15,692 nt of DNA, from positions 1-15,692 of the IMG/VR virus record IMGVR_UViG_2778261417_000005; one strand, given 5' to 3'. Position numbers and translations under genes: made by a program. Position 1 is the first letter of the stretch. Every line of letters starts with the position of its first letter. This document shows positions 78-15,692 of this stretch, one piece after another. Below the pieces are notes generated by a model that saw only the letters and a list, made by a program, of their open reading frames with translations, did no database searches and was not told the origin of the DNA. This DNA comes from a virus (taxonomy: Duplodnaviria > Heunggongvirae > Uroviricota > Caudoviricetes).

Positions 78-378
78 TTATTTCTTCGCTTCCGGTAGTG
101 CCTATATCGTTGCTATGTTACCGGTATTTGCCATGCTGGCGAACGTCTCCGGCGCACCGTTAATGTTAACCGCGCTGGCACTGTTGTTCTCCAACTCCTA
201 TGGCGGCATGGTTACTCACTATGGCGGCGCGGCAGGTCCGGTCATCTTTGGCGTGGGTTATAACGATATTAAATCCTGGTGGTTGGTCGGTGCGGTACTG
301 ACGATATTAACCTTCCTGGTGCATATCACCCTCGGCGTGTGGTGGTGGAATATGCTGATCGGCTGGAACATGCTGTAA
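78..378 (+). pseudogene. ybhI: 3' fragment of a DASS-family (CitT-like) anion transporter gene, 5' part displaced by IS1
   Basis: Open frame to TAA at 376-378 encodes about 100 aa of hydrophobic helices (…SGSAYIVAMLPVFAMLANVSGAPLMLTALALLF…WWWNMLIGWNML). It has no credible start: the tracked TTG at 64 lies inside the IS1 inverted repeat. Position upstream of ybhJ matches K-12 gene order as recalled. Confidence 0.6.
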
Positions 379-560
379 ATATACTCGTCATACTTCAAGT
401 TGCATGTGCTGCGTTTGCGTTCGCTCACCCCAGTCACTTACTTATGTAAGCTCCTGGGGATTCACTCACTTGTCGCCTTCCTGCAACTCGAATTATTTAG
501 AGTATATCCATTTATTATCTTTCTGCGCACTTCACGGTGCGCAGATATCTGGAGCATTTG

Positions 561-2822
561 ATGATCAAGTTATCTGAAAAAGGCGTGTTTCTCGCCAGTA
601 ATAACGAAATAATTGCCGAAGAACATTTCACCGGCGAAATTAAAAAAGAAGAAGCCAAAAAAGGCACTATTGCCTGGTCTATTCTCTCTTCTCATAATAC
701 GTCCGGAAATATGGATAAACTTAAAATTAAGTTTGATTCATTAGCCTCTCACGATATTACCTTTGTTGGTATTGTACAGACCGCTAAAGCGTCCGGAATG
801 GAACGTTTCCCGCTGCCGTATGTGCTGACCAACTGCCATAACTCACTCTGCGCCGTCGGCGGCACCATTAACGGTGATGACCATGTTTTTGGTTTATCGG
901 CAGCTCAGCGTTATGGCGGTATTTTTGTGCCTCCGCATATTGCGGTCATCCATCAATATATGCGTGAGATGATGGCAGGCGGCGGCAAAATGATCCTCGG
1001 GTCAGACAGCCACACCCGTTACGGTGCATTAGGGACAATGGCAGTCGGTGAGGGCGGCGGTGAGTTGGTAAAACAGCTGCTTAATGACACCTGGGATATC
1101 GACTATCCGGGAGTTGTTGCGGTGCATCTGACCGGAAAACCAGCGCCGTATGTGGGGCCGCAGGATGTGGCGCTGGCTATCATCGGTGCCGTGTTCAAAA
1201 ACGGCTACGTCAAAAACAAAGTGATGGAATTCGTAGGTCCCGGTGTTGCTGCGCTCTCTACCGATTTCCGTAACAGCGTTGACGTTATGACCACTGAAAC
1301 GACCTGTTTAAGTTCTGTCTGGCAAACCGATGAAGAAGTCCATAACTGGCTGGCGCTGCACGGTCGCGGCCAGGATTACTGCCAGCTTAACCCTCAACCG
1401 ATGGCGTACTACGATGGCTGCATCAGCGTTGATTTAAGCGCCATCAAACCAATGATTGCGCTGCCGTTCCACCCGAGCAACGTGTATGAAATCGACACAC
1501 TGAACCAGAACCTGACCGACATTCTGCGTGAGATTGAAATTGAGTCCGAACGCGTGGCGCACGGTAAAGCCAAACTCTCGCTGCTGGATAAAGTGGAAAA
1601 TGGTCGCCTGAAAGTGCAGCAGGGGATTATCGCGGGCTGTTCTGGCGGTAACTACGAAAACGTCATCGCGGCGGCGAATGCACTGCGCGGTCAATCCTGT
1701 GGCAATGACACCTTCTCGCTGGCAGTTTACCCGTCATCACAGCCGGTGTTTATGGATCTCGCCAAAAAAGGTGTGGTAGCAGATTTGATTGGCGCAGGCG
1801 CAATCATCAGAACCGCGTTCTGCGGCCCATGCTTTGGCGCGGGCGATACGCCAATCAACAACGGATTAAGTATTCGCCACACCACGCGCAACTTCCCGAA
1901 CCGCGAAGGCTCTAAGCCAGCTAATGGGCAGATGTCAGCGGTGGCGTTGATGGACGCTCGTTCTATCGCTGCGACTGCGGCAAACGGTGGCTATTTAACC
2001 TCTGCCAGCGAACTTGATTGCTGGGACAACGTGCCGGAGTACGCCTTCGATGTAACGCCGTATAAAAACCGTGTTTATCAGGGCTTTGTGAAAGGGGCAA
2101 CTCAGCAACCGCTGATTTACGGACCGAACATTAAAGACTGGCCGGAATTGGGTGCGCTGACTGACAATATCGTCCTGAAAGTGTGCTCGAAGATCCTCGA
2201 CGAAGTGACCACCACCGACGAACTGATTCCTTCCGGTGAAACCTCTTCTTATCGTTCAAATCCGATTGGTCTGGCGGAGTTTACCCTGTCACGCCGCGAT
2301 CCCGGTTATGTTGGCAGAAGTAAAGCGACTGCTGAGCTGGAAAATCAGCGTCTGGCGGGGAATGTCAGCGAGCTGACAGAGGTGTTTGCGCGCATTAAGC
2401 AGATTGCTGGTCAGGAGCATATTGATCCGCTGCAAACTGAAATTGGCAGCATGGTATATGCGGTGAAACCAGGCGATGGTTCTGCGCGTGAACAGGCGGC
2501 GAGCTGCCAGCGTGTGATTGGCGGTCTGGCGAATATTGCCGAAGAGTACGCGACTAAACGCTACCGTTCTAACGTCATCAACTGGGGGATGTTACCGCTG
2601 CAGATGGCGGAAGTGCCAACCTTTGAAGTGGGGGATTACATTTACATCCCTGGCATTAAAGCGGCGCTGGATAATCCGGGTACGACGTTTAAAGGTTATG
2701 TGATCCATGAAGATGCGCCGGTAACGGAAATTACGCTCTATATGGAAAGTCTGACTGCTGAAGAGCGCGAGATTATCAAGGCGGGTAGTTTGATTAACTT
2801 CAATAAAAACCGTCAGATGTAA
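561..2822 (+). CDS. ybhJ: Aconitase-family protein (putative hydratase), 753 aa from the ATG at 561
   Basis: Long ORF (tracked from GTG 537). ATG at 561 has GGAG at 551-554, 6 nt upstream, giving MIKLSEKG… Translation carries aconitase-like Gly-rich and Cys-containing motifs ([26 protein letters not shown]). Confidence 0.9.
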
Positions 2823-2845
2823 AAAGCGCCATGTGAATGTAGGTC

Positions 2846-3040
<195 letters not shown>

Positions 3041-3055
3041 AATAGTTAATTGCTC

Positions 3056-4339
3056 TTACTTCTTCGCCTCTGCAACCACTTTACTACCCACGCCGCGGTT
3101 ATTGTATTCCCACATGCGGTTGTAGTTAGTGTCATTCAGATTGCGCTGTATTTCGTCGTTATCATCTACGCTGCCGGTATTACCCGCAAACGGACGATTA
3201 GAGATCACCGCATCGGCCCACGGTTTAGCCGTGTTAAAACCTTCGTTGATGGCGCTATCACGGATCACCACCTGACCGTTGGTATTGGCATCAACATCCA
3301 GCGAGCGGCCCAGTTGCGCCACACCATCACCGAAAGCATTGAAACGGCTGTTTACGGCGAGGAAACCGTAGTAAATGTTGGACAGCGTAGCCGGTGCAAA
3401 CACATACGCTTCTTGCTGAGTACGTGAGTTCACCACGCGGAATTCGGTGTTATCGAACACCACTGCGCCGCGACCAGAAACGATATCCACATCCCCTTCA
3501 ATGTAGCTGTTGGTCACCAGCGTACGCGGCTGACGATTCGTTTCCAGACGGTTCTGCACACCGCTGTTGGTGACAAAGAAGGTGTTCTGACGACCGAGAA
3601 TGTTAACGTTGTTAATCTGTACCTGGTCACCATCAGTACGCAGTGCCACCGCCGGATGGTTACCTGCATCTACGCTATCGCCCAGCGTGTTTTCGATGGT
3701 CAGATTTTGCAGTTGCAGGCCATTGTTTTGTGACCAGAAGACCGCAGAGCAGAGAACACCGATACTGTCGCTGCGTTTGCTCTGGCAGCTATCGTACATA
3801 TACCACGCTGGTTTACCTGGCATATATTTGCCGCGCGGGTTGACGTCGTGACGCCAGTCGGCAGGGCTCATGCCACCATCAAGGGAAAGCCCAATCTTCA
3901 CATCAATCGGTTTTTCACCTGTACCGTACAGAGTAATTCCACCCGGAGCGGCAGGGACATATACCGTTCCCTGATACTCACCAGGCATCACGGCAATATA
4001 CTGGCGCTTGTTGGTACGCTTGATAATTGCCGCATCTACCGCCGCCTGAATCGTGGTATGCGTTACACCTTGAGTGCCCGCCGGGCCGACAACAAAGTCA
4101 GGTTGCGCAGGCAGGGTAATCGGGGAAGGATTCCACGCTGCAGCACCTGGTGTCAGGGATGCAAAATAGTGTTGAGCATCGAAATTCTGCGCTTCTTTTG
4201 CCGACAGAATCGGGCGAGAAGAGGTACCAGGCGCGGTTTGATCAGAAGGACGTTGATCGGGCGGGGTTGAGCTACAGGCGGTCAGCGTCACGCCAAAAGC
4301 CAATGCCAGCGCCAGACGGGAAACTGAAAATGTGTTCAC
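3056..4339 (-). CDS. ybhC: Outer-membrane lipoprotein, pectinesterase-like family, 427 aa
   Basis: 427-aa ORF with lipoprotein signal MNTFSVSRLALALAFGVTLTAC (lipobox LTAC), GTG start at 4339. Sits immediately chromosome-side of the att core, as for K-12 ybhC. Confidence 0.9.
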   Translation of the reverse strand: MNTFSVSRLALALAFGVTLTACSSTPPDQRPSDQTAPGTSSRPILSAKEAQNFDAQHYFASLTPGAAAWNPSPITLPAQPDFVVGPAGTQGVTHTTIQAAVDAAIIKRTNKRQYIAVMPGEYQGTVYVPAAPGGITLYGTGEKPIDVKIGLSLDGGMSPADWRHDVNPRGKYMPGKPAWYMYDSCQSKRSDSIGVLCSAVFWSQNNGLQLQNLTIENTLGDSVDAGNHPAVALRTDGDQVQINNVNILGRQNTFFVTNSGVQNRLETNRQPRTLVTNSYIEGDVDIVSGRGAVVFDNTEFRVVNSRTQQEAYVFAPATLSNIYYGFLAVNSRFNAFGDGVAQLGRSLDVDANTNGQVVIRDSAINEGFNTAKPWADAVISNRPFAGNTGSVDDNDEIQRNLNDTNYNRMWEYNNRGVGSKVVAEAKK

Positions 4340-4385
4340 AGGTTGCTCCGGGCTATGAAATAGAAAAATGAATCCGTTGAAGCCT

Positions 4386-4473
4386 GCTTTTTTATACTAA
4401 GTTGGCATTATAAAAAAGCATTGCTTATCAATTTGTTGCAACGAACAGGTCACTATCAGTCAAAATAAAATCA
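4386..4473. other. Prophage attachment site attL: lambda 15-bp core plus P' arm
   Basis: Core GCTTTTTTATACTAA at 4386-4400, preceded by attB-type host arm (…TTGAAGCCTGC) and followed by GTTGGCATTATAAAAAAGCATTGCTTATCAATTTGTTGCAACGAACAGGTCACTATCAGTCAAAATAAAATCATTATTTG, recognised as the lambda P' arm. It abuts the int stop at 4474. Confidence 0.9.
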
Positions 4474-5544
4474 TTATTTGATTTCAATTTTGTCCCACTC
4501 CCTGCCTCTGTCATCACGATACTGTGATGCCATGGTGTCCGACTTATGCCCGAGAAGATGTTGAGCAAATTTATCGCTTATCTGCTTCTCATAGAGTCTT
4601 GCAGACAAACTGCGCAACTCGTGAAAGGTTGGCGGATCCCCTTCGAAGGAGAGACCTGATGCTTTTCGTGCGCGCATAAAATACCTTGATACTGTGCCGG
4701 ATGAAAGCGGTTCACGACGAGTAGATGCAATTATGGTTTCTCCGCCAAGAATCTTTTTGCATTTATCAAGTGTTTCCTTCATTGATATCCCGAGAGCATC
4801 AACATGCAATGTTGTTGGGATGGCAATTTTTACGCCTGTTTTGCTTTGCTCGACATAAAGATATCCATCTACGATATCAGACCACTTCATTTCGCATAAA
4901 TCACCAACTCGCTGCCCGGTAACAACAGCCAGTTCCATTGCAAGTCTAAGCCAACATGGTGATGATTCTGCTGCTTGATAAATTTTCAGGTATTCGTCAG
5001 CCGTAAGTCTTGATCTCCTTACCTCTGATTTTGCAGCGCGAGTGGCTGCGACCGGGTTTGTTGTTATATGGCCTTCAGCTATAGCCTCTCGGAATGCATC
5101 GCTCAGTGTTGATCTGATTAACTTGGCTGATGCCGCCTTGCCCTCGTCTATGTATCCATTGAGCATTGCCGCAATTTCTTTTGTGGTGATGTCTTCAAGT
5201 GGAGCATCAGGCAGACCCCTCCTTATTGCTTTAATTTTGCTCATGTAATTTATGAGTGTCTTCTGCTTGATTCCTCTGCTGGCCAGGATTTTTTCGTAGC
5301 GATCAAGCCATGAATGTAACGTAACGGAATTATCACTGTTGATTCTCGCTGTCAGAGGCTTGTGTTTGTGTCCTGAAAATAACTCAATGTTGGCCTGTAT
5401 AGCTTCAGTGATTGCGATTCGCCTGTCTCGGCCTAATCCAAACTCTTTACCCGTCCTTGGGTCCCTGTAGCAGTAATATCCATTGTTTCTTATATAAAGG
5501 TTAGGGGGTAAATCCCGGCGCTCATGACTTCGCCTTCTTCCCAT
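4474..5544 (-). CDS. int: Lambda-type tyrosine integrase, 356 aa
   Basis: 356-aa ORF starting MGRRRSHERRDLPPNLYIRNNGYYCYRDPRTGKEFGLGRD…, matching lambda Int in sequence and length as recalled, with a conserved C-terminal catalytic region (…HELRSLSARLY…LLGHKSDTMASQYRDD). Adjacent to attL. Confidence 0.95.
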   Translation of the reverse strand: MGRRRSHERRDLPPNLYIRNNGYYCYRDPRTGKEFGLGRDRRIAITEAIQANIELFSGHKHKPLTARINSDNSVTLHSWLDRYEKILASRGIKQKTLINYMSKIKAIRRGLPDAPLEDITTKEIAAMLNGYIDEGKAASAKLIRSTLSDAFREAIAEGHITTNPVAATRAAKSEVRRSRLTADEYLKIYQAAESSPCWLRLAMELAVVTGQRVGDLCEMKWSDIVDGYLYVEQSKTGVKIAIPTTLHVDALGISMKETLDKCKKILGGETIIASTRREPLSSGTVSRYFMRARKASGLSFEGDPPTFHELRSLSARLYEKQISDKFAQHLLGHKSDTMASQYRDDRGREWDKIEIK

Positions 5545-5740
5545 TTCTGATCCTCTTCAAAAGGCTACCTGTTACTGGTCGATTTAAGTCAACCTTTACC
5601 GCTGATTCGTGGAACAGATACTCTCTTCCATCCTTAACCGGAGGAGGGAATATCCTGCACTCGCGTACCCATCGACGAACTGTTTCAAGGCTTCTTGGGC
5701 GTCGCTGGCGTGCGTTCCACTCCTGAAGTGTCAAGTACAT
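5522..5740 (-). CDS. xis: Excisionase, 72 aa
   Basis: 72-aa ORF MYLTLQEWNARQRRPRSLETVRRWVRECRIFPPPVKDGREYLFHESAVKVDLNRP…, matching lambda Xis as recalled. Its 3' end overlaps the int start by 23 nt. Confidence 0.9.
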   Translation of the reverse strand: MYLTLQEWNARQRRPRSLETVRRWVRECRIFPPPVKDGREYLFHESAVKVDLNRPVTGSLLKRIRNGKKAKS

Positions 5741-5765
5741 CGCAAAGTCTCCGCAATTACACGCA

Positions 5766-5786
5766 AGAAAAAACCGCCATCAGGCG
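5766..5786 (-). terminator. Putative intrinsic terminator (minus strand) just upstream of xis
   Basis: GC-only 5-bp stem CCGCC (5773-5777) / GGCGG (5782-5786) with loop ATCA. On the minus strand it is followed by a six-U tract (plus-strand A-run 5766-5772). Short stem, so tentative. Confidence 0.4.
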
Positions 5787-5947
5787 GCTTGGTGTTCTTT
5801 CAGTTCTTCAATTCGAATATTGGTTACGTCTGCATGTGCTATCTGCGCCCACAGCATCCAGTGGTCATAGCAGTCGCTGATGTTCTCGGCTTCGATAACT
5901 CTGTTGAATGGTTCTCCATTCCATTCACCTGTGACTCGGAAGTGCAT
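5779..5947 (-). CDS. Small hypothetical phage protein, 55 aa
   Basis: Hand translation of the minus strand from ATG (plus 5945-5947) to TGA (plus 5779-5781): MHFRVTGEWNGEPFNRVIEAENISDCYDHWMLWAQIAHADVTNIRIEELKEHQAA. Not in the ORF track (under the length cutoff). Its stop lies inside the hairpin above. Confidence 0.45.
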
Positions 5948-6189
5948 TTATCATCTCCATAAAACAAAACCCGCCGTAGCGAGTTCAGATAAAAGAAATC
6001 CTCGTCAGTGCGAGGATGCTGTTCATTGCTGCTATACACTTTTTTGCTCTCAACGTAAGCGGTAGCCCATTCTGTTGGGTTGGTGCAGTTGCTTTTAGGA
6101 AATGCTATTTACCCCTTAAATGTCGGCTGAAAGAGCTAAAATCCATGCAAAAAATTTACGCAATTTTGTGTATTATTGTGCAGTAAGTA

Positions 6190-6792
6190 ATGAGCTATTT
6201 TCTGCGCAAAAAATGGATGGTAAATTTGTCCGGGTCAGGAAAAATTTTATGGGCGCTAAACATGAAAAAAGATTCGTATCCTTATTTGATTTGCATGACA
6301 GTTTCAGGGCTGATCTTTATTTTCCTTTTCTTCTGGTGGCGGGCAGATATCTACAGGGTCACGTTTCTTAATCAGAGTATATCCCACTATTACATTCTGT
6401 TTAGCATGGGAATAGCTTTTCTGTTATCTCTGTTTTGGGTTAAGAAGGGGATAGTAAAACAAAGCGGCTGGAAGAGTCTGTCAGCATACCTTAAGGTTTA
6501 TGCAGGGATGTGCATATTTGCTGGATTTTTTCTGATTATACCCCTTACGACACTAACTTATTTTTTGCCTGGAGAGACATCGTCTTATGTTGCACCGTAT
6601 CGGTATACTTCCGGTAGTTCAAAAAGTTGTTCTGGAGCTGAGGTGGATGACCCCGATCTACATGAGAATATTCGCATTTGCTATCCGTATGGCAATTATG
6701 AGTACGATAATATTATCTATGTTGAAAAGAAAATTAATATATTAGGTGCGGTAGTGACATATGCACAGACCGCGCGTGATGATACTGAATGA
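6190..6792 (+). CDS. Hypothetical integral membrane protein (3 predicted TM helices plus about 75-aa C-terminal domain), 200 aa; AT-rich accessory gene
   Basis: Only plus-strand ORF inside a minus-strand operon. Hydrophobic stretches YLICMTVSGLIFIFLFFWW, YYILFSMGIAFLLSLFWV and VYAGMCIFAGFFLIIPLTTLTYFL. Visibly AT-rich codon usage. Start uncertain (ATG 6190, 6217 or 6262; none has a strong Shine-Dalgarno). Confidence 0.6.
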   Translation: MSYFLRKKWMVNLSGSGKILWALNMKKDSYPYLICMTVSGLIFIFLFFWWRADIYRVTFLNQSISHYYILFSMGIAFLLSLFWVKKGIVKQSGWKSLSAYLKVYAGMCIFAGFFLIIPLTTLTYFLPGETSSYVAPYRYTSGSSKSCSGAEVDDPDLHENIRICYPYGNYEYDNIIYVEKKINILGAVVTYAQTARDDTE

Positions 6793-6826
6793 TATAGTAT
6801 ATAGCGGGCAAGTTTTAGTTAATTTA

Positions 6827-6850
6827 TCGAGGTAATATAATTTACCTCGA
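6827..6850 (+). terminator. Candidate terminator hairpin downstream of the membrane-protein gene
   Basis: Perfect 9-bp stem TCGAGGTAA (6827-6835) / TTACCTCGA (6842-6850), loop TATAAT. The downstream tract ACTCGTTTGTTCT is only moderately U-rich. Confidence 0.35.
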
Positions 6851-7002
6851 CTCGTTTGTTCTGGTATTAATATTTCGCTTTACGACCGATTTTTATCTGA
6901 TGATATCATGCGGTTTTCATATACTGACTTACTGTCTTTTCTCCGTTAGCGATTTTCTCCTGCTCAGCGATGATTTTATCTTTGGCTTCTAGTTAATTTC
7001 GC

Positions 7003-7224
7003 TCACTTCGAACCTCTCTGTTTACTGATAAGCTCCAGATCTTGCTGGCAACTGGCACAAGTCCGACAACCCTGAACGGCCAGTCGTCTTCGTTCATCTA
7101 TCGGATCGCCACACTCACAACAATGAGTGGCAGATATAGCCTGGTGGTTCAGGCGGCGCATTTTTATTGCTGTGTTGCGCTGTAATTCTTCAATTTCTGA
7201 TGCTGAATCAATTATGTCTGCCAT
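7003..7224 (-). CDS. DksA/TraR-family C4 zinc-finger protein (lambda Orf73-like), 73 aa
   Basis: 73 aa with paired Cys motifs HCCECGDPIDERRRLAVQGCRTCASC, the CxxC…CxxC layout and CE-CG-PI-RR signature of TraR/DksA-type RNA-polymerase-binding proteins. Confidence 0.8.
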   Translation of the reverse strand: MADIIDSASEIEELQRNTAIKMRRLNHQAISATHCCECGDPIDERRRLAVQGCRTCASCQQDLELISKQRGSK

Positions 7225-7285
7225 CTTTCATTAATCCCTGAATTGTTGGTTAATACGCTTGAGGGTGAATGCGAATAATAAAAAA

Positions 7286-7300
7286 GGAGCCTGTAGCTCC
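7286..7300 (-). terminator. Candidate intrinsic terminator (minus strand)
   Basis: Stem GGAGC (7286-7290) / GCTCC (7296-7300), loop CTGTA. On the minus strand it is followed by U-rich tract TTTTTTATTATT (plus A-run 7274-7285). Confidence 0.4.
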
Positions 7301-7322
7301 CTGATGATTTTGCTTTTCATGT

Positions 7323-7604
7323 TCACCGTTCCTTAAAGACGCCGTTCAACATGCCGATCGCCAGGCTTAAATGAGTCGGTGTGAATCCCATCAGCGTTAC
7401 CGTTTCGCGGTGCTTCTTTAGTACGCTACGGCAAATGTCATCGACGTTTTTATCCGGAAACTGCTGTCTGGCTTTTTTGATTTCAGAATTAGCCTGACGG
7501 GCAATGCTGCGAAGGGCGTTTTCTTGCTGAGGTGTCATTGAACAAGCCCCATGTCGGCAAGCATAAGCACACAGAATATGAAGCCCGCTGCCAGAAAAAT
7601 GCAT
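7323..7604 (-). CDS. Hypothetical small phage protein with N-terminal Cys/His cluster, 93 aa (start uncertain; internal Met at 7538 would give 71 aa)
   Basis: ORF MHFSGSGLHILCAYACRHGACSMTPQQENALRSIARQANSEIKK… with C-x3-C-x-H-x2-C near the N-terminus. Its length equals lambda ea8.5 (93 aa, from memory) but identity is not verified. No clear Shine-Dalgarno at either start. Confidence 0.5.
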   Translation of the reverse strand: MHFSGSGLHILCAYACRHGACSMTPQQENALRSIARQANSEIKKARQQFPDKNVDDICRSVLKKHRETVTLMGFTPTHLSLAIGMLNGVFKER

Positions 7605-7614
7605 TCAGTGGTTG

Positions 7615-7806
7615 TCATACCTGGTCTCTCTCATCTGCTTCTGCTTTCGCCACCATCATTTCCAGCTTTTGTGAAAGGGATGCGGCTAACGTATGAAATT
7701 CTTCGTCTGTTTCTACTGGTATTGGCACAAACCTGACTCCAATTTGAGCGAGGCTATGTGCCATCTCGATACTCGTTCTTAACTCAACGGGAGATGCTTT
7801 GTGCAT
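7615..7806 (-). CDS. Small delta-region protein, 63 aa (lambda orf63-like by size and position)
   Basis: 63-aa [66 protein letters not shown]. It overlaps the next gene by 28 nt, the arrangement recalled for lambda orf63/orf60a. Confidence 0.55.
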   Translation of the reverse strand: MHKASPVELRTSIEMAHSLAQIGVRFVPIPVETDEEFHTLAASLSQKLEMMVAKAEADERDQV

Positions 7807-7961
7807 ACAGCTCCCCGTTTATTATTTATCTCCTCAGCCAGCCGCTGTGCTTTCAGGGGATTTCTGATAACAGAAAGGCCGGGAAATACCCAGCCTCGCT
7901 TTGTAATGGAGTAGACGAAAGTGATCGCGCCTACCCGGATATTATCGTGAGGATGCGTCAT
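7779..7961 (-). CDS. Small delta-region protein, 60 aa (lambda orf60a-like)
   Basis: ATG at 7959-7961 overlaps the exo stop (7958-7960) in ATGA fashion and gives a 60-aa product [24 protein letters not shown]… The track's 7967 start adds two codons. Confidence 0.5.
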
Positions 7962-8638
7962 CGCCATTGCTCCCCAAATACAAAACCAATTTCAGCCAGT
8001 GCCTCGTCCATTTTTTCGATGAACTCCGGCACCATCTCGTCAAAACTCGCCATGTAATTTTCATCCCGCTCAACCACGACATAATGCAGGCCTTCACGCT
8101 TCATTCGTGGGTCATAGTTGGCAAAGTACCAGGCATCTTTTCGCGTCACCCACATGCTGTACTGCACCTGGGCCATGTAAGCCGACTTTATGGCCTCGAA
8201 ACCACCGAGCCGGAATTTCATGAAATCCCGGGAGGTAAACGGGCATTTCAGTTCAAGGCCGTTGCCGTCACTGCATAAACCATCGGGAGAGCAGGCGGTG
8301 CGCATACTTTCGTCGCGATAGATGATCGGGGATTCAGTAACATTCACGCCGGAAGTAAACTCAAACAGGGCTCTGGCGTCGTTCTCGTACTGTTTTCCCC
8401 AGGCCAGCGCCTTAGCATTAACTTCCGGAGCCACACCGGTGCAAACCTCAGCCAGCAGGGTGTGGAAGTAGGACATTTTCATGTCAGGCCACTTCTTTCC
8501 TGAGCGGGGCTTTGCTATCACGTTGTGAACTTCTGAAGCGGTGATGACGCCGAGCCGTAATTTGTGCCATGCATCATCCCCCTGTTCGACAGCTCTCACG
8601 TCGATCCCGGTACGCTGCAGGATAATGTCCGGTGTCAT
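7958..8638 (-). CDS. exo: Lambda-type 5'-3' exonuclease (Red alpha), 226 aa
   Basis: 226-aa [68 protein letters not shown]…, matching lambda Exo as recalled. 4-nt overlap with bet upstream. Confidence 0.95.
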
Positions 8639-9420
8639 GCTGCCACCTTCTGCTCAGTGGCTTTCTGTTTCAGGAATCCAAGAGCTTTCACTGCTTCGGC
8701 CTGTGTCAGTTCTGACGATGCGCGAATGTCGCGGCGAAATATCTGGGAACAGAGCGGCAATAAGTCGTCATCCCATGTTTTATCCAGGGCGATCAGCAGA
8801 GTGTTAATCTCCTGCATGGTTTCATCGTTAACCGGAGTGATGTCGCGTTCCGGCTGACGTTCTGCAGTGTATGCGGTATTTTCGACAATGCGCTCGGCTT
8901 CATCCTTGTCATAGATACCAGCAAATCCGAAGGCCAGACGGGCACACTGAATCATGGCTTTATGACGTAACATCCGTTTGGGATGCGACTGCCACGGTCC
9001 GGTGATTTCTCTGCCTTCGCGGGTTTTGAATGGTTCGCGGCGGCATTCATCCATCCACTCGGTAACGCAGATCGGATGATTGCGGTCCTTGCGGTAAATC
9101 CGGCATGTGCAGGATTCATTGTCCTGCTCAAAGTCCATACCATCAAACTGCTGGTTTTCATTGATGATGCGGGACCAGCCATCAACGCCCACCACCGGAA
9201 CGATGCCGTTCTGCTTATCAGGGAAGGCGTAAATTTCTTTCGTCCACGGATTAAGGCCGTACTGGTTGGCGACGATCAGCAATGCGATGAACTGCGCATC
9301 GCTGGCATCGCCTTTAAATGCCGTCTGGCGAAGAGTGGTGATCAGTTCCTGTGGGTCGACAGAATCCATGCCGACACGTTCAGCCAGCTTCCCAGCCAGC
9401 GTTGCGAGTGCTGTACTCAT
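8635..9420 (-). CDS. bet: Single-strand annealing protein Beta (Red beta), 261 aa
   Basis: 261-aa [69 protein letters not shown]…, matching lambda Bet as recalled. Confidence 0.95.
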
Positions 9421-9425
9421 CCGTT

Positions 9426-9722
9426 TTATACCTCTGAATCAATATCAACCTGATGGTGAGCAATGGTTTCAACCATGTACCGGATGTGTTCTGCCATGCG
9501 CTCCTGAAACTCAACATCGTCATCAAATGCACGGGTAATGGCTTTTTTGCTGGCCCCGCAGCGTTGTAAATGATCGATGCAGAGCGATTCAAACAAATGC
9601 TGGGGCAGGCCTTTGTCCATGTCGTCTGCCAGTTCTGCCTCTTTCTCTTCACGGGCGATCTGCTGGTAGTGACGCGCCCAGCTCTGAGCCTCAAGACGAT
9701 CCTGAATGTAATAAGCGTTCAT
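9426..9722 (-). CDS. gam: Gam (RecBCD inhibitor), 98-aa short form
   Basis: [98 protein letters not shown], near-identical to lambda Gam with a few substitutions relative to my recollection. An in-frame TAA lies 19 codons upstream of the ATG. Confidence 0.9.
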
Positions 9723-9798
9723 GGCTGAACTCCTGAAAATGGCTGTGAAAATATCGCCCGCGAAATGCCAGGCTGATTAGGAAAACAAGAAAGGGGGG

Positions 9799-10089
9799 TT
9801 AGTGATTCAGGCCGTTACCGCGTCCGTCGAGAAAAACTTCCACGAGCAAATCACGGGTATAAGTGCGCTCGATGCCGCGATGCAGATAAAGCCGTCCGCG
9901 TAAATTAGCTGATGCAGTCCAGGTACCATCTTTGTGTTTGACCAGCATTCCTGGCATGACCGCACCTCGATTAACGGTCTGCGTTCCGTAATGTTGATGA
10001 ACCATAAAAACTCCTGCCCGTAAGCTGGGCTGCTGAACATATAAAGACTTCTGCGCGTATTCAGGCGGTGGATGGCCGCCGGTTGTCAT
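9799..10089 (-). CDS. Hypothetical small protein at the kil/cIII position (up to 96 aa; true start may be an internal Met)
   Basis: ORF with GAGG 10 nt upstream of the ATG at 10089. Its 3' end overlaps the region upstream of gam, as kil does in lambda. No recognisable N-type Arg-rich motif. Confidence 0.45.
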   Translation of the reverse strand: MTTGGHPPPEYAQKSLYVQQPSLRAGVFMVHQHYGTQTVNRGAVMPGMLVKHKDGTWTASANLRGRLYLHRGIERTYTRDLLVEVFLDGRGNGLNH

Positions 10090-10282
10090 AACTAAGCCGC
10101 CTCGTTGAAGCGACTAAGGTATGAAATGTTGAGTTAATTTCAGCTGGTCACACCGACGTTCACGCGTCCGTTTCACCCCTCGCACTCCCCGAAGCCTGCT
10201 GAAATTCAAACTGCGGATCTAAGCGGTCATCGCAACGGTGAATCAGGTGGTTGCCGTATCGTTGTGTTGTTGCGATATGGTG

Positions 10283-10326
10283 ATAATAGCTATTGCTATT
10301 GGTGATATCAATACTTATTGCTATTA
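10283..10326 (-). promoter_or_regulatory. pL-like early leftward promoter with operator-like repeats (OL)
   Basis: On the minus strand: -35 TTGATA (plus 10306-10311), 17-nt spacer, -10 TATTAT (plus 10283-10288). Plus-strand TATTGCTATT occurs at 10291-10300 (in the spacer) and 10316-10325 (upstream of -35). Palindrome AATAGCTATT at 10285-10294. Confidence 0.55.
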
Positions 10327-10447
10327 GTTGATGTGTTTTGATATTAAATGTTTGATAGCAAAAAGAATTAATTTTGTGACTTGCATCGCATAGCGATAAC
10401 TGAAGTGAGGTGTGGTGGTTTTTTGGACGGTTTGTGTGATGAGGGGA

Positions 10448-10480
10448 GGCAAAAGAAAACCCGGCACTGGGGCCGGGTTT
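10448..10480 (-). terminator. Intrinsic terminator ending the repressor-side accessory operon (tIMM-like)
   Basis: Perfect 9-bp stem AAACCCGGC (10457-10465) / GCCGGGTTT (10472-10480), 6-nt loop. On the minus strand it is followed by UCUUUUGCC. Lies 76 bp downstream of the stop at 10556. Confidence 0.6.
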
Positions 10481-10555
10481 AGATGGATAAGAAAGGGTAA
10501 TAGGGAATGAAAAATCGCTTTGCGTAATGCAAGGTGGCGAGCAGTTTCTTAAGCA

Positions 10556-10996
10556 CTAAAGAAAAAAGTACATTGATAGCTTATAAAGACCTGTTCCTGC
10601 AGCGATGATTGCTGGAACACCAAGCAATACCGCAAGCTTTGCGTCTGAAATCTTTCTATCGACAGCATCGATGGAGGGTTTTTTGGCTAGTGAATCTTTT
10701 ATTGAATCGAGTCGCTCCAGAACAGCGATCATGTTTCTGTCGATAGATTTGACATCTGTCTTAAGCTCATCAACGTCACGTCGGATATAGGACACATCAG
10801 ACTCAAGCTTTGCAACTTTCGATTCAAGCACATTATTACTCCCAGAGCCACCGCTACCACTTGATTGTAGCATAGGTACATTACCGCCAGACATACCAGC
10901 TGATTGAGAAAATGCTGCAGTGTGCAAAGATGATGATCTTGCCGCTTGTTCAAGCTTTTCAGTTAGGTTTGGAGCTTCGTAATAACCGTGTTTCAT
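10556..10996 (-). CDS. Hypothetical tail-anchored membrane protein with coiled-coil region, 146 aa
   Basis: N-terminal Ser/Gly-rich segment (SSGSGGSGSNN), heptad-like region (VAKLESDVSYIRRDVDELKTDVKSIDRNMIAVLERLDSIKDSLAKK), and a single C-terminal hydrophobic helix (LAVLLGVPAIIAAGTGLYKLSMYFFL). Start is 8 nt after the upstream gene's stop (translational coupling). AT-rich. Confidence 0.7.
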   Translation of the reverse strand: MKHGYYEAPNLTEKLEQAARSSSLHTAAFSQSAGMSGGNVPMLQSSGSGGSGSNNVLESKVAKLESDVSYIRRDVDELKTDVKSIDRNMIAVLERLDSIKDSLAKKPSIDAVDRKISDAKLAVLLGVPAIIAAGTGLYKLSMYFFL

Positions 10997-11004
10997 TGTT
11001 AATA

Positions 11005-11274
11005 TTATGACTTATTGGTTTTAGCTCTATCATGCTGATCGCGAATAAAGTCAGCGAGTTTAAGCATTAAATCTTCCGTCATGCGAATTGTTGCAATGTT
11101 GTACTTTACGTTTTCAGTGTCATTACTACCATCAGCGCCCCATTCTGTAACATGCTGAAAGAAAGATATGGAGCCTAAGCGATCGTCATCTTCCCCAAAA
11201 GATGAATATCCAAATGCATCAGCATATGCATCTACACAGTTATTTGATTTTTTTATAAGTTTTTTATCACTCAT
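11005..11274 (-). CDS. Hypothetical small acidic soluble protein, 89 aa
   Basis: ORF MSDKKLIKKSNNCVDAYADAFGYSSFGEDDDRLGSISFFQHVTEWGADGSNDTENVKYNIATIRMTEDLMLKLADFIRDQHDRAKTNKS. Shine-Dalgarno GGAAAGG about 5 nt upstream of the ATG. Starts 80 bp downstream of the repressor stop, same strand. Confidence 0.7.
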   Translation of the reverse strand: MSDKKLIKKSNNCVDAYADAFGYSSFGEDDDRLGSISFFQHVTEWGADGSNDTENVKYNIATIRMTEDLMLKLADFIRDQHDRAKTNKS

Positions 11275-11353
11275 TTTTGCCTTTCCCGTAATGTTATTTT
11301 TATAAAGAATTCTTTCAGCGCATTACCCAAAAGCCTCATCAGCACGCAGCTGA

Positions 11354-12046
11354 TTATCCGTGTTTCCTATACGTCTGCGGCATACTGCCAATAACCTTCC
11401 CGAAAATGAACACCCGGTTCATCTCGTCTTTCTCGATCGGGTCCCACGGTGAGTAGCTCTTGTTATCAGAGATAACCAGTAGCTTATCTTTCATCATTTG
11501 CAGGCGCTTTACATGGGCTGTGTCGTCGTACAGAAACGCATAGATACCATCACCGTCGAAAGATTTAACCGTGATATCAACGAACAGCAGATCACCTGGT
11601 TCGATCGTTCCTGACATGCTGTCACCGCGCACGTTAATGATGCGGATATTTTCCGCCTTCCTGCCATCGAACATGTGACGAGCATCGTCAAACGAGTACT
11701 CAACCGAGCGTAGAACTTCCACAAACTCACGGTTGATGACACCCGGTCCGGCACTGACTTCTATATCAAGAACGTCAATCTTGAAGTATTTTGAATGGCT
11801 GACAGCAGGCTTCCCTGATTGTTGACCGTCATTTCTCATCGGGCCTATGCCTGATGAGAGCCATTCTGTTCGAACACCCAATGCATTAGCTATTTCAACA
11901 ATTTTTGTTGAGCCGCGCGCGTTGCCGCTTGTCAGTCTCCAGATTGTGGGTTGAGCTACGCCAGACGCCTTTGCAAGAGCGCCTTGAGACATTCCAGATT
12001 GTTCCATCGCTAGGTTTAAGCGATCAGCAAGAGTTTCTTTTTTCAT
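11354..12046 (-). CDS. cI-type prophage repressor (N-terminal HTH plus C-terminal LexA-like S24 peptidase domain), 230 aa from the Met at 12046
   Basis: HTH segment MSQGALAKASGVAQPTIWRL. Candidate autocleavage Ala-Gly (…EVSAGPGV…). Peptidase motif VRGDSMSGTIEPGDLLFVD with downstream Lys (VKRL). The tracked start at 12082 lies upstream of the predicted pRM -10, so 12046 is preferred. Not lambda cI by sequence. Confidence 0.85.
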   Translation of the reverse strand: MKKETLADRLNLAMEQSGMSQGALAKASGVAQPTIWRLTSGNARGSTKIVEIANALGVRTEWLSSGIGPMRNDGQQSGKPAVSHSKYFKIDVLDIEVSAGPGVINREFVEVLRSVEYSFDDARHMFDGRKAENIRIINVRGDSMSGTIEPGDLLFVDITVKSFDGDGIYAFLYDDTAHVKRLQMMKDKLLVISDNKSYSPWDPIEKDEMNRVFIFGKVIGSMPQTYRKHG

Positions 12047-12156
12047 AAGTTTTAATTTATACGCTTGCGTATTGATGGTCAAAACACGTTTTGCTATTGC
12101 TTGGGTTAATACGCATTGCTATTATTCATTCATTGCAATACCAATAGGAATTGATA
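12047..12156. promoter_or_regulatory. Divergent immunity control region (OR, pRM-like leftward, pR-like rightward)
   Basis: pR-like: -35 TTGCTT (12097-12102), 17-nt spacer, -10 TATTAT (12120-12125). pRM-like on the minus strand: -35 TTGACC (plus 12077-12082), -10 TATAAA (plus 12056-12061), implying an almost leaderless repressor mRNA. Operator-like TTGCTATTGC (12091-12100), ATTGCTATT (12115-12123), palindrome ATTGCAAT (12132-12139). Confidence 0.55.
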
Positions 12157-12384
12157 ATGACAAATCAAACCATTCAACTCGCAATCAGTATTACAGGTAG
12201 TCAAAAACGACTGGCAGATCTATGCGGTGTAGCCCAACCCACAGTTTGGCGTTGGCTACACGGTGGCGGAATTGATGCCCGCTATGTAATGAAAATTGTC
12301 TCAGCCACTGGTGGAAAGATTAAACCAGCAGATATTCGTCCCGACCTCGCACCATTGTTTAACGCGAGTAATTCTGCCGCCTAA
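12157..12384 (+). CDS. Cro/YdaS-like HTH regulator, 75 aa
   Basis: ATG at 12157 with AGGAA 6 nt upstream. HTH segment GSQKRLADLCGVAQPTVWRWL. First rightward gene opposite the repressor. Confidence 0.8.
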   Translation: MTNQTIQLAISITGSQKRLADLCGVAQPTVWRWLHGGGIDARYVMKIVSATGGKIKPADIRPDLAPLFNASNSAA

Positions 12385-12408
12385 ACTGCGGCGTTAACTG
12401 ATAAGGCA

Positions 12409-12954
12409 ATGACTATGCAACCACTTACATACCAACAGACTAGCGGATTTAGCCCGACTGCGGTGATAAATCGTTCTCAAACAAAACAGGCGCCAGGCCA
12501 CGAAAAAATCCGTGATGCCGTTCGCGCCTGGTCGGCTGCAGATAATCAGGATGTTGTTGCCGCACTCATTGTGAATGAGTATCGGGAGCAGGGCGGCGGC
12601 ACCATCGATTTCCCTGATGATGTCAGCCGTGCACGCCAGAAGCTGTTCCGCTTCCTCGATAACAAATTCGATTCTGAAAAATACCGAAATAACGTGCGTG
12701 AACTGACCCCGGCAATTCTGGCGGTACTACCGCTGGAATATCGCGGCCACCTGGTTGAGCAGGATAGCTACATGGCTCGGCTGGCTGAAATGGAAAAGGA
12801 ACTCAGTGAGGCAAAACAGGCTGTCATTCTCAACGCACCACGCCACCAGAAACTGAAGGAGATGAGTGAAGGCATTGTGTCGATGTTTCGTGTGGACCCG
12901 GATTTGGCTGGTCCACTGATGGCGATGGTCACCACCATGCTGGGGGCAATATGA
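12409..12954 (+). CDS. Hypothetical regulatory protein at the cII position (possibly a YdaT-like CII analogue), 181 aa
   Basis: ORF begins 24 bp after the cro-like stop and ends overlapping the next ORF. Family assignment is from recollection of Rac/CP-933-type regions where a cro-like gene is followed by ydaT; not verified. Confidence 0.5.
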   Translation: MTMQPLTYQQTSGFSPTAVINRSQTKQAPGHEKIRDAVRAWSAADNQDVVAALIVNEYREQGGGTIDFPDDVSRARQKLFRFLDNKFDSEKYRNNVRELTPAILAVLPLEYRGHLVEQDSYMARLAEMEKELSEAKQAVILNAPRHQKLKEMSEGIVSMFRVDPDLAGPLMAMVTTMLGAI

Positions 12955-13040
12955 CAGGTTCGGAAATGGCGAAAGCCGGTCTGCGCGAACAGAACCGACT
13001 TTCAGGTGCAAATCGTAACACACTCATTGCGGGAGGAATT

Positions 13041-13970
13041 ATGGCAAACACTGCTGAGATATTCAATTTTCCAGTGCCGGATGTGGCACAAAAGGAGCGG
13101 CGCGTGGCAGATCTCGACGATGGTTATACGCGCATTGCAAATGAGTTGCTGGAAGCTGTGATGCTGGCCGGATTAACACAGCACCAGCTTCTGGTCTTCC
13201 TGGCTGTCATGCGCAAAACATATGGCTTTAATAAAAGACTGGATTGGGTGAGCAACGAGCAACTTTCCGAATTGACCGGGATATTGCCGAACAAGTGTTC
13301 TGCTGCAAAAAGCGTTCTGGTAAAGCGTGGGATTCTTATTCAGAGCGGGCGGAATATCGGCATTAATAATGTGGTCAGTGAATGGTCAACATTACCCGAA
13401 TCAGGTAAGAAAAATAAAGTTTACCTGAAAGAGGTAAATTTACCTGAATCAGGTAAGAAAAGTTTACCCAAATCAGGTAAAGGCGTTTACCCGAATCAGG
13501 TAAACACAAAAGACAAACTAACAAAAGACAATATAAAACCTTTTTCGTCCGAGAATTCTGACGAATCCTCTGACCAGCCAGAAAACGATCTTCCTGTGAT
13601 GAAACCGGATGCTGCAATTCAGAGCGGCAGCAAGTGGGGGACAGCAGAAGACCTGACCGCCGCAGAGTGGATGTTTGACATGGTGAAGACCATCGCGCCA
13701 TCAGCCAGAAAACCGAATTTTGCAGGGTGGGCTAACGATATCCGCCTGATGCGTGAACGTGATGGACGTAACCACCGCGACATGTGCGTGCTGTTCCGCT
13801 GGGCATGCCAGGACAACTTCTGGTCCGGTAACGTGCTGAGTCCGGCTAAACTCCGCGACAAGTGGACCCAGCTCGAAATCAACCGTAACAAGCAACAGGC
13901 TGGCGTGACAGCCAGAAAACCAAAACTCGACCTGACAAACACTGACTGGATTTACGGGGTGGATTTATGA
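13041..13970 (+). CDS. O: Replication initiator, O-like (iteron-binding), 309 aa from the ATG at 13041
   Basis: MANTAEIFNFPVPDVAQKERRVADLDDGYTRIANELLEAVMLAGLTQHQLLVFLAVMRKTYGFNK… resembles the lambda O N-terminus but diverges. GGGAGG at 13031-13036. Iterons lie inside the gene. The tracked start at 12951 adds 30 codons of doubtful coding. Confidence 0.85.
   Translation: MANTAEIFNFPVPDVAQKERRVADLDDGYTRIANELLEAVMLAGLTQHQLLVFLAVMRKTYGFNKRLDWVSNEQLSELTGILPNKCSAAKSVLVKRGILIQSGRNIGINNVVSEWSTLPESGKKNKVYLKEVNLPESGKKSLPKSGKGVYPNQVNTKDKLTKDNIKPFSSENSDESSDQPENDLPVMKPDAAIQSGSKWGTAEDLTAAEWMFDMVKTIAPSARKPNFAGWANDIRLMRERDGRNHRDMCVLFRWACQDNFWSGNVLSPAKLRDKWTQLEINRNKQQAGVTARKPKLDLTNTDWIYGVDL
13392..13503. repeat. 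Replication origin iterons (five 17-bp repeats) inside the O-like gene, followed by an AT-rich tract
   Basis: TTACCCGAATCAGGTAA (13392), TTACCTGAAAGAGGTAA (13421), TTACCTGAATCAGGTAA (13440), TTACCCAAATCAGGTAA (13464), TTACCCGAATCAGGTAA (13487). Each is an internal inverted repeat TTACC…GGTAA. AT-rich AAACACAAAAGACAAACTAACAAAAGACAATATAAAACC follows. Confidence 0.8.
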
Positions 13971-14668
13971 AAAACATCGCCGCACAGATGGTTAACTTTG
14001 ACCGTGAGCAGATGCGTCGGATCGCCAACAACATGCCGGAACAGTACGACGAAAAGCCGCAGGTACAACAGGTAGCGCAGATCATCAACGGTGTGTTCAG
14101 CCAGTTACTGGCAACTTTCCCGGCGAGCCTGGCTAACCGTGACCAGAATGAACTGAACGAAATCCGCCGCCAGTGGGTTCTGGCTTTCCGGGAAAACGGG
14201 ATCACCACAATGGAACAGGTTAACGCAGGAATGCGCGTAGCCCGTCGGCAGAATCGACCATTCCTGCCATCACCCGGGCAGTTTGTCGCCTGGTGCCGGG
14301 AAGAAGCATCCGTTAACGCCGGGCTGCCAAACGTCAGCGAGCTGGTTGATATGGTTTACGAGTATTGCCGGAAGCGTGGCCTGTATCCGGATGCAGAGTC
14401 TTATCCGTGGAAATCGAACGCGCATTACTGGCTGGTTACCAACCTGTACCAGAACATGCGGGCCAATGCGCTTACTGATGCGGAATTACGGCGCAAGGCT
14501 GCCGATGAACTGTCCTGTATGACCGCGCGAATTAACCGTGGTGAGGCGATACCTGAACCAGTAAAACAGCTTCCTGTCATGGGCGGTAGACCTCTAAATC
14601 GTGCACAGGCTCTGGCGAAGATCGCAGAAATCAAAGCTAAGTTTGGGCTGAAAGGAGCAAGTGTATGA
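13967..14668 (+). CDS. P: Replication protein P (DnaB helicase loader), 233 aa
   Basis: MKNIAAQMVNFDREQMRRIANNMPEQYDEKPQVQQVAQIINGVFSQLLATFPASLANRDQNE…, near-identical to lambda P as recalled and the same length. ATGA overlap with the O stop. Confidence 0.95.
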   Translation: MKNIAAQMVNFDREQMRRIANNMPEQYDEKPQVQQVAQIINGVFSQLLATFPASLANRDQNELNEIRRQWVLAFRENGITTMEQVNAGMRVARRQNRPFLPSPGQFVAWCREEASVNAGLPNVSELVDMVYEYCRKRGLYPDAESYPWKSNAHYWLVTNLYQNMRANALTDAELRRKAADELSCMTARINRGEAIPEPVKQLPVMGGRPLNRAQALAKIAEIKAKFGLKGASV

Positions 14669-14838
14669 CGGGCAAAGAGGCAATTATTTATTACCTGGGG
14701 ACGCATAAGAGTTTCTGTGCGCAGGACGTTGCTGCGGCAACAGGTGTGACAGTAACCTGCATAAATCAGGCAGCAGCTAAAATGGCGCGTGCAGGAATCC
14801 TGGTCATTGATGGTAAGGTCTGGCGAACGTTTGTTTAA
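14665..14838 (+). CDS. Ren-like ORF, apparently C-terminally truncated (57 aa)
   Basis: ATG overlaps the P stop. AAAGGAG lies 7 nt upstream. Product MTGKEAIIYYLGTHKSFCAQDVAAATGVTVTCINQAAAKMARAGILVIDGKVWRTFV resembles the N-terminus of lambda Ren (about 96 aa, from memory). The frame ends where AT-rich foreign sequence begins. Confidence 0.6.
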   Translation: MTGKEAIIYYLGTHKSFCAQDVAAATGVTVTCINQAAAKMARAGILVIDGKVWRTFV

Positions 14839-14984
14839 CGGTTAGCTACTCAGGATGATAGGGCGCGGCAAGTGAGTATGAAGCGGATTTTCAGGAATGC
14901 CATCAGAGTTTGGAAATAAAGTGGGTTTTCTAGTGGCAAGAGACTTGATAATATTTAGTTCTTTGAAGCCAAGGAGATAGGGTT

Positions 14985-15479
14985 ATGAGAAAATTTATTT
15001 TAGCCTTTGTCATAAGTGCCTCGTTTACAGCAAATGCTGGTGTAGAGAAGTTAGGGCCGTGGATAACAAAGTCTGAGATAAATAAAATGACTGACCAGAC
15101 TGACTTTGTGGCTCTTAATTTATCACCAGATTCATATAACAAAGCAGGTACTGATCGTGCAACTTCACTGGTGTTGCGTTGTAGTGATAACAAAACAGAT
15201 GCCTATTTATCATTCAATGATTATATGGGTTCGGACAACCCAAGAATTACAGTGCGGTTAGATGGCGGAAAGCCGGTCAAGAGTGTTTGGGGTGGTGGGG
15301 AAGGCGGTGATTCTGCATTTGCTCCACAACCAATACAATTTATAAAGACCTTGGCTAAGCATAAAAAAGCCATTTTTGGGTTTGAACCTTATGGATCAAC
15401 TATGCAAGTAGTTGAGTTTGACTTGTCTGAGATTGATAAGGTTGTGGAAAAAATTTCACAGTCTTGCAATTGGAAATGA
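14985..15479 (+). CDS. Hypothetical secreted (periplasmic) protein with cleavable signal peptide, 164 aa
   Basis: Strong Shine-Dalgarno AAGGAG (14971-14976) 8 nt before the ATG. Signal peptide MRKFILAFVISASFTANA with AxA site. Two Cys in the mature part (C66, C162). AT-rich. Followed by a canonical terminator. Confidence 0.75.
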   Translation: MRKFILAFVISASFTANAGVEKLGPWITKSEINKMTDQTDFVALNLSPDSYNKAGTDRATSLVLRCSDNKTDAYLSFNDYMGSDNPRITVRLDGGKPVKSVWGGGEGGDSAFAPQPIQFIKTLAKHKKAIFGFEPYGSTMQVVEFDLSEIDKVVEKISQSCNWK

Positions 15480-15496
15480 CAAAAAAATTTCATATG

Positions 15497-15520
15497 AACC
15501 CAGTTGGCGCTGGGTTTTTT
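15497..15520 (+). terminator. Rho-independent terminator
   Basis: 7-bp stem AACCCAG (15497-15503) / CTGGGTT (15510-15516), loop TTGGCG, running into a T-tract ending at 15520. An A-tract upstream gives possible bidirectional activity. Confidence 0.7.
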
Positions 15521-15562
15521 ATTTCAGTAGCCAATAATGCATTCAAAATCTCTTACTTGAGA

Positions 15563-15692
15563 GGTAATGACTCCAACTTACTGATAGTGTTTTATGTTCA
15601 GATAATGCCCGATGACTTTGTCATGCAGCTCCACCGATTTTGAGAACGACAGCGACTTCCGTCCCAGCCGTGCCAGGTGCTGCCTCAGATTC
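15563..15692 (-). mobile_element. IS1 insertion sequence, IRR-side 130 bp (element continues beyond the window end)
   Basis: GGTAATGACTCCAACTTACTGATAGTGTTTTATGTTCAGATAATGCCCGATGACTTTGTCATGCAGCTCCACCGATTTTGAGAACGACAGCGACTTCC… matches the IS1 right end as recalled, with one mismatch in the inverted repeat. Confidence 0.9.
15578..15692 (-). CDS. insB: IS1 transposase InsB, 3' end (partial; 5' part beyond the window)
   Basis: Minus-strand reading ends …[16 protein letters not shown] with TAA at plus 15578-15580, the recalled InsB C-terminus. Confidence 0.75.

Follow-up and report, generated by a model that had tools for sequence, protein, structure and literature searches.

The founding moron, the gene for gp15 of phage HK97, has the tail chaperone gene on one side and the tape-measure gene on the other, is expressed from the prophage and blocks DNA entry (PMC3594210), and blocking of phage DNA entry has likewise been reported for a soluble effector in the periplasm (PMC13128918). 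The VasI protein of Vibrio cholerae (VCA0118) is predicted to be exported (PMC3166118); TagO is the same protein as VasI, and its function was listed as unknown in a 2026 review (PMC13584744). Here we describe a gene for a small protein related to VasI in a 15,692-nucleotide stretch of DNA from a virus of the Caudoviricetes (IMG/VR record IMGVR_UViG_2778261417_000005, positions 1 to 15,692), the whole of which is referred to below as the window. We are highly confident that positions 14931-15525 of the window represent a mobile prophage cargo cassette, or moron, of about 0.6 kb that encodes a periplasmic protein.

The cassette shows several of the features by which morons are recognized, namely variable presence among closely related phages, between genes that would otherwise adjoin, a terminator of its own and a foreign base composition. 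The prophage is lambda-like (DLP12-like) and integrated beside ybhC, and the cassette occupies a slot of variable content that has ren on one side and the nin genes on the other. What follows ren differs between sibling prophages that share this attachment site: MJ-T has an intact ren followed by two hypothetical genes, TUM9757 has a ren-like open reading frame (ORF) followed by an emrE-like gene for a small multidrug resistance transporter, as in DLP12, and EC21Z-014 has a ren pseudogene followed by the window gene and then by a pair of genes that includes one for a HEPN-domain protein. The GC content of the cassette is 37-41%, compared with 51-58% for the O and P genes. The original prediction, made from the letters of the window, had proposed that AT-rich DNA was inserted here and that it formed a compact, horizontally acquired unit of prophage cargo; the base composition bears out the former and the latter was borne out by the variation after ren in the siblings and by the finding of the same cassette in another slot of unrelated prophages.

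Both slots are seen among 80 viral loci in IMG/VR. At 40 of these, in E. coli lambdoid phages, the gene follows P/ren (identity of 98% or more), and at 37, in other enterobacterial prophages, it immediately precedes a tape-measure gene (identity of 55-81%); the remaining three are truncated or unclear. The homologues in Klebsiella, Pantoea and Serratia are in prophage tail modules, between a DUF6246 gene, which appears to stand where a tail assembly chaperone would be, and the gene for the tape measure. Neighbors in this slot include other cargo (Arc/Ant, KilA-N, YafO), and its occupancy varies. Phages of Pasteurella and Brucella carry more distant relatives, as do P2-like phages in their accessory block. 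The leader, ribosome-binding site (RBS), ORF and terminator move together among temperate phages that infect enteric bacteria, with homology between the two contexts extending from the RBS to the terminator. An alignment showed that the RBS region (GGAGATAGGG) is kept between the window and the tape-measure-slot cassettes, and the terminator hairpins of the copies in the two slots are homologous, with cross-phage homology stopping just past the T-run, at about 15525.

The ORF is under purifying selection. The isolated phage IdasGreatGrand, a viable carrier, encodes an identical protein, and all five nucleotide differences between its ORF and that of the window are synonymous, with none nonsynonymous, while the flanks are 81-95% identical. 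By a rough estimate, the chance of an entirely synonymous outcome under neutrality is about 0.001.

The coordinates of the cassette and its flanks are listed in Table 1. The secreted-protein gene of the original prediction is real, an ORF encoding 164 aa with AAGGAG upstream. By inspection and hydropathy, the N-terminus of the protein (MRKFILAFVISASFTANA followed by GVEK) has a basic start, a hydrophobic core of 11 residues and an A-N-A site, corresponding to the n, h and c regions of a putative cleavable signal peptide, with no further membrane segment; cleavage would be expected after Ala18. A signal-like hydrophobic segment of variable sequence is present in 24 of 25 full-length aligned homologues, the exception (P0021) having a longer N-terminus. 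In an AlphaFold2 model, residues 1-17 are disordered, with a predicted local distance difference test score (pLDDT) below 50, and the fold begins at residue 20. The Sec signal peptide originally proposed, with cleavage between ANA and GVEK, is consistent with both of these findings. A lipoprotein was ruled out, because the protein lacks a lipobox and its only cysteines are C66 and C161. These two residues, which had also been pointed out in the original prediction, are invariant in the close family and make up two of only four invariant columns among 24 diverse relatives (down to 24% identity); the conserved pair would fit a structural disulfide in the periplasm. Searches of the PDB sequences, with the single protein or with a family profile, gave no match.

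Table 1. Positions of the cassette, its component features and its flanking sequences in the window
Feature	Position	Strand	Remarks
ren pseudogene	14665-14930	+	57-codon ORF at 14665-14838, followed by a diverged, out-of-frame 3' remnant of ren
Mosaic joint within ren	14829-14831		Sharp fall in identity versus sibling prophages (windowed identities)
Left edge of cargo	14929-14931		End of all ren-derived homology, about 22 bp before the lambda ren stop
Candidate extended -10 promoter, TGaTAATAT	14946-14954	+	No usable -35; from cross-context alignment
Shine-Dalgarno sequence, AAGGAG	14971-14976	+	ATG 8 nt downstream
Cargo ORF	14985-15479	+	164 aa; stop codon included in span
Codons of predicted signal peptide	14985-15038	+	Residues 1-18, MRKFILAFVISASFTANA; n, h and c regions and A-N-A site by inspection
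Predicted mature protein (146 aa), VasI-C/IalB-like beta-rich domain	15039-15479	+	Invariant C66 and C161; stop codon included in span
Intrinsic terminator	15496-15524	+	Hairpin 15496-15517, then T-run to 15524; right edge of cassette at about 15525
Short spacer	15525-15562		Common to E. coli relatives without IS1 (matches run to 15562; comparison with L001)
IS1 end, running off the window	15563-15692		Inverted repeat GGTAATGACTCCAACTTA...; thousands of IS1A/IS1B matches

The original prediction recognized no motif in the mature protein, but profile searches did find matches. The protein can be assigned to phrog_1848 of PHROGs v4, a family catalogued without a function or category, which it matched over its full length (residues 1-164 on profile positions 1-166; 236.4 bits, E = 2.7e-70); the prophage homologues from Klebsiella and Pantoea likewise fall in phrog_1848. 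The window protein also matches the C-terminal domain of Pfam VasI (PF11319), although only marginally (26.7 bits versus a gathering score of 26.5) and only at profile positions 78-184 of 184. A match to VasI was also obtained with 22 of 24 wider relatives.

In RefSeq, the Prokaryotic Genome Annotation Pipeline (PGAP) gives the product the name "type VI secretion system-associated protein TagO", and does so in 80-plus E. coli genomes. If the name is taken literally, the gene would encode a genuine type VI secretion system (T6SS) accessory protein, and the Pfam score, just past gathering, agrees with this. Nevertheless, we regard it as very improbable. With the NCBIfam VasI equivalog (TIGR03360), the window protein scored only 14.4 bits, versus a cutoff of 124.2, and the N-terminal VasI module (C...RLxCYD; profile positions 1-77) is absent, so that the mature protein would begin directly with the C-terminal domain. 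The genomic context also contradicts the name. We examined about 100 loci (L001, L002, L003-L012 and the 80 IMG/VR loci), all of which were prophages or phages, and none had a T6SS cluster within or beside it. In an exhaustive profile search, the domain was found in 3,829 clusters at 50% identity, often at the C-terminus of longer proteins. The latter include fusions of the VasI-type domain with DUF2939 and with cytochrome c, as well as long forms (P0038, P0040, P0043 and a 297-aa protein of P2-like phages) with from one to three copies of C...RLxCYD, and a long-form "TagO" lies among housekeeping genes in a gammaproteobacterial metagenome-assembled genome (L016, 10001-10606). Because the domain occurs in such fusions and in a housekeeping neighborhood, it is not specific to T6SSs. 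Judged by its sequence relatives and their surroundings, the clade to which the window protein belongs is exclusively phage cargo, for which the name TagO is misleading. In RefSeq the name is over-propagated, being given to proteins that fall short of the NCBIfam VasI model and lie outside T6SS loci.

A different connection with T6SSs would be that the protein, as a stand-alone VasI C-terminal domain in the periplasm of the prey, binds an incoming T6SS component or effector and so serves as a decoy or shield when the envelope is crossed by a T6SS or another attacker, or else interferes with the T6SS of the host. The domain is indeed that of VasI/TagO, and periplasmic proteins of the immunity type are common on mobile elements. 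In V. cholerae, VasI is dispensable for secretion of Hcp and VgrG and yet is needed for killing, which suggests a role at the delivery or target step (PMC3166118). However, no T6SS genes or effectors adjoin any of the loci that we examined, the domain is widespread outside T6SS loci (the "TagO" with housekeeping neighbors and the cytochrome c and DUF2939 fusions), the N-terminal module of VasI is missing from the protein, and a literature search gave no precedent for prophage-borne protection by a VasI-like protein. Protection against T6SS attack is therefore, in our view, improbable.

The long-form VasI protein of P2-like phages (Gemsvirus, P88-like; L014, 4235-5465, and L015, 4202-5432) has 297 aa, comprising a signal peptide, three C...RLxCYD repeats and the C-terminal domain, and it matches Pfam VasI over the full length with 89.6 bits. 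The product of the gene ending 4 nt upstream of it is a 110-aa zinc-ribbon protein whose hydrophobic segments are membrane-like. Both genes belong to an accessory block that is bordered on one side by ogr and a hok-like toxin gene and on the other by int/att.

We scanned the DNA upstream of the gene for two-hexamer sigma-70 promoters, in the window and in the Klebsiella, Pantoea and Serratia cassettes, and no convincing promoter was found. The original prediction had noted GATAAT at 14947-14952 with a poor -35, which we confirmed, and had concluded that there was no convincing sigma-70 promoter. That conclusion holds for the two-hexamer type, but it overlooked a conserved extended -10 motif, TGnTAnnAT. 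In a cross-context alignment, TGaTAATAT of the window is in register with TGcTAGGAT and TGcTAACAT of other contexts, and 25 of 36 distinct cassette leaders have TGnTAnnAT at a distance of 39-46 nt upstream of the ATG, whereas shuffled sequences gave 0.47 on average and 3 at most. Extended -10 promoters work without a -35, and the candidate promoter of the cassette is probably an element of this kind. Because the leaders are related by descent, their shared motif shows conservation and not independent recurrence.

A second pattern, located about 35-47 nt upstream of the start codon, was seen in 7 of 14 distinct leaders (L059, L069, L072, L078, L082, L086 and L088), where a -10-like (T)AGGAT forms one arm of an inverted repeat of 4-6 bp (e.g., TAGGAT-tt-ATCCTA). 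The partner arm can be on either side, the arms are short and there is no such repeat in the window; it could be an operator or a product of chance.

At the other end of the gene, the textbook intrinsic terminator of the original prediction was recovered by a scan as the sole terminator-like site in the region, and a terminator lies directly 3' of the gene in 73 of the 80 viral loci; of the seven without one, two are contig ends. This bears on whether the gene might be a helper of the lytic cycle, transcribed from pR or by late read-through, with a periplasmic role in lysis timing, tail function or ejection, or exclusion during infection, and none in the lysogen. The gene is co-oriented with early genes in the window and with tail genes elsewhere, where it is directly upstream of the tape-measure gene; the scans revealed no strong sigma-70 consensus promoter, and structurally similar uncharacterized proteins exist in the virulent T4-like phages RB16, KP15 and VH7D. 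However, a terminator between the gene and the tape-measure gene would be useless in a late operon, whereas it is expected of a unit that is active in the lysogen, so that, following the moron concept, the unit would be transcribed alone in the lysogen (PMC3594210). The gene is also dispensable, since closely related phages are without it, and the extended -10 is conserved and the base composition foreign. Like protection against T6SS attack, a purely lytic role thus seems improbable.

The explanation that we favor is that the gene would be transcribed in the lysogen from the cassette's own weak promoter, with the terminator halting read-through into phage genes. The protein would be exported, cut after Ala18 and disulfide-bonded in the periplasm, where it would act by binding rather than by catalysis to protect the envelope of the lysogen; its two structural neighbors are envelope proteins for which we know of no enzymatic role. 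Genome entry of superinfecting phages would then be blocked after adsorption, i.e., there would be superinfection exclusion at the step of DNA entry. In our judgment, exclusion is the commonest known role of prophage cargo located in the envelope, and we prefer it here for that reason, because HK97 gp15 occupies the same slot between chaperone and tape-measure genes, and because a periplasmic blocker of DNA entry is known. The assignment of this role is nonetheless tentative, and the whole explanation, comprising cassette, export, expression in the lysogen and exclusion, is plausible but falls short of being probable.

Several points weigh against this explanation. A PADLOC search gave no match for the window protein, which has no homology to known exclusion or defense proteins, and literature searches gave no functional data on phage-borne VasI/TagO-like genes. 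Sharing a slot with gp15 is a matter of where cargo is tolerated and does not speak to function, and the only genetic phenotype reported for the family is T6SS-dependent killing (PMC3166118). As to expression, the two-hexamer scans were empty, and the putative promoter of the cassette is based on a conserved motif only, whose recurrence across related leaders is not independent. Finally, the gene is rare: among 5,426 complete E. coli genomes, 85 carry it.

An alternative to exclusion is that the protein is a lysogenic-conversion factor serving host interaction or envelope fitness (adhesion, invasion, or resistance to serum or stress), as with Bor, Lom and the role proposed for IalB. The match to the IalB fold was not reproduced by Foldseek. 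Because the window protein is predicted to be soluble and periplasmic, with neither a lipobox nor outer-membrane features, surface exposure would not be expected, and the carriers, which come from soil, water and animals and include a phage from swamp mud, show no pathotype pattern. A conversion factor of this type is therefore unlikely, although we would not give it a negligible chance. We would say much the same of a broader proposal that takes in both superinfection and T6SS attack, in which phrog_1848 would be a new class of soluble periplasmic guard with the VasI/IalB fold that binds the envelope-crossing tip of incoming nanomachines and stops delivery into the lysogen. Such a guard might recognize the spikes of T6SSs or, in the case of phages, ejection or tape-measure proteins. 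This proposal is speculative, and we consider it rather doubtful.

Comparison with related prophages, which had been suggested as a means of defining the boundaries of the insertion, showed that the left one is more complex than was first thought. The window was 83-95% identical to other ren alleles (those of lambda and two sibling prophages) up to 14829 but only 57-70% identical over 14830-14930, where these other alleles are 94-96% identical to one another; past 14930, identity fell to the noise level of 20-30%. In a four-way alignment of the window, MJ-T, TUM9757 and lambda, all sequences diverge after GGGTnTT, and megablast matches of the sibling prophages stop at 14853-14909. The original prediction that phage homology ends at 14838 was therefore correct in that identity drops nearby, at about 14830, but ren-derived sequence runs on to about 14930, and in place of a breakpoint at 14838 there are a mosaic joint and, about 100 nt further on, the end of ren homology. 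We interpret the joint at 14830 as a recombination joint inside ren, and the drop in identity suggests that the cassette and the diverged ren remnant probably arrived together from another lambdoid phage.

Nor was ren shortened by the insertion, as had been supposed. The stop codon at 14836-14838 is a TAC-to-TAA change lying inside ren-derived sequence that continues beyond it, and truncation by insertion was ruled out on this basis; the diverged remnant also carries a 1-nt deletion near 14892/14893. The RefSeq annotation of ren is a pseudogene ("frameshifted; internal stop"). The 57-codon form was present in all 36 scorable cassette-bearing viral loci and also in phage IdasGreatGrand.

On the right, the gene does not abut IS1 directly, as the original prediction had stated, because IS1 starts at 15563, 38 nt past the T-run of the terminator. 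The exact IS1 junction was not found in the 5,426 complete E. coli genomes or in the GTDB species representatives, and the insertion thus appears to be private to the strain from which the window came.

In E. coli relatives without IS1 (L001, 7345-8141), two overlapping genes come after the cassette, one for a HEPN-domain protein (phrog_5737, with a weak PADLOC hit to PDC-M28A) and one for a 133-aa partner (phrog_5760), which may be a toxin-antitoxin or defense pair. The IS1 of the window is about 380 bp upstream of the expected start of this pair. The prophage has another variable cargo slot at 10556-11274 of the window (- strand), between a kil-like gene and cI (11354-12082). Of the two ORFs there, one encodes a protein of 146 aa that matches just the C-terminal half of phrog_3556, and the other a phrog_4231 protein of 89 aa; neither family has an assigned function. 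In siblings, the same slot holds a gene for a BamE-like lipoprotein (L001, 2146-2526, and L019) or a pair of genes for DUF4411 and ImmA/IrrE proteins (L018, 13908-15556).

The cassette is an ordinary, well-formed prophage moron, and both the kind of element and the protein family were already known. It is nevertheless a clear example of a single unit, made up of a candidate promoter, an RBS, the gene and a terminator, in two unrelated phage slots, one of which is the HK97 gp15 slot, and a compact entry point to the uncharacterized VasI/IalB-type periplasmic domain, which is represented by some 3,800 protein clusters. The TagO name is of practical importance in that it could inflate T6SS gene counts in genomes of E. 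coli, Klebsiella and other bacteria. If the protein did prove to be a periplasmic guard, it would offer a first way into the mechanism of the VasI/TagO and IalB families, for which the question of function dates from 2011 and 2001, respectively.

Among known systems, VasI/TagO (PF11319, formerly DUF3121) has its C-terminal beta-rich domain and both cysteines in common with the window protein, along with the motifs W...NK[LM]TD, RC..NKT, PYG, EFD and C.W. The window protein differs in lacking the N-terminal module and in failing the equivalog cutoff, and its close homologues are always phage cargo, never part of a T6SS cluster. With IalB (PF06776; Bartonella henselae structure 3dtd), identity was only 9%; the window protein gave no Pfam IalB hit, and neither Foldseek nor a search of PDB sequences with a profile recovered IalB. 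Like the lambda genes bor and lom, and like the occupant of the ren-nin slot of DLP12 (emrE in K-12), the window gene is cargo of foreign composition, with its own terminator, in a tolerated lambdoid slot; the products are unrelated to the window protein, since Bor is a lipoprotein, Lom resides in the outer membrane and EmrE is a transporter of the inner membrane. The resemblance to HK97 gp15 is that both are small autonomous units of prophage cargo encoding an envelope protein, and homologues of the window gene occupy the gp15 slot. The cassette of the window is itself in the ren-nin slot, however, and the two proteins have no kinship in sequence or fold, gp15 being a small YebO-like protein of the inner membrane, whereas the window protein is predicted to be soluble, periplasmic and beta-rich.
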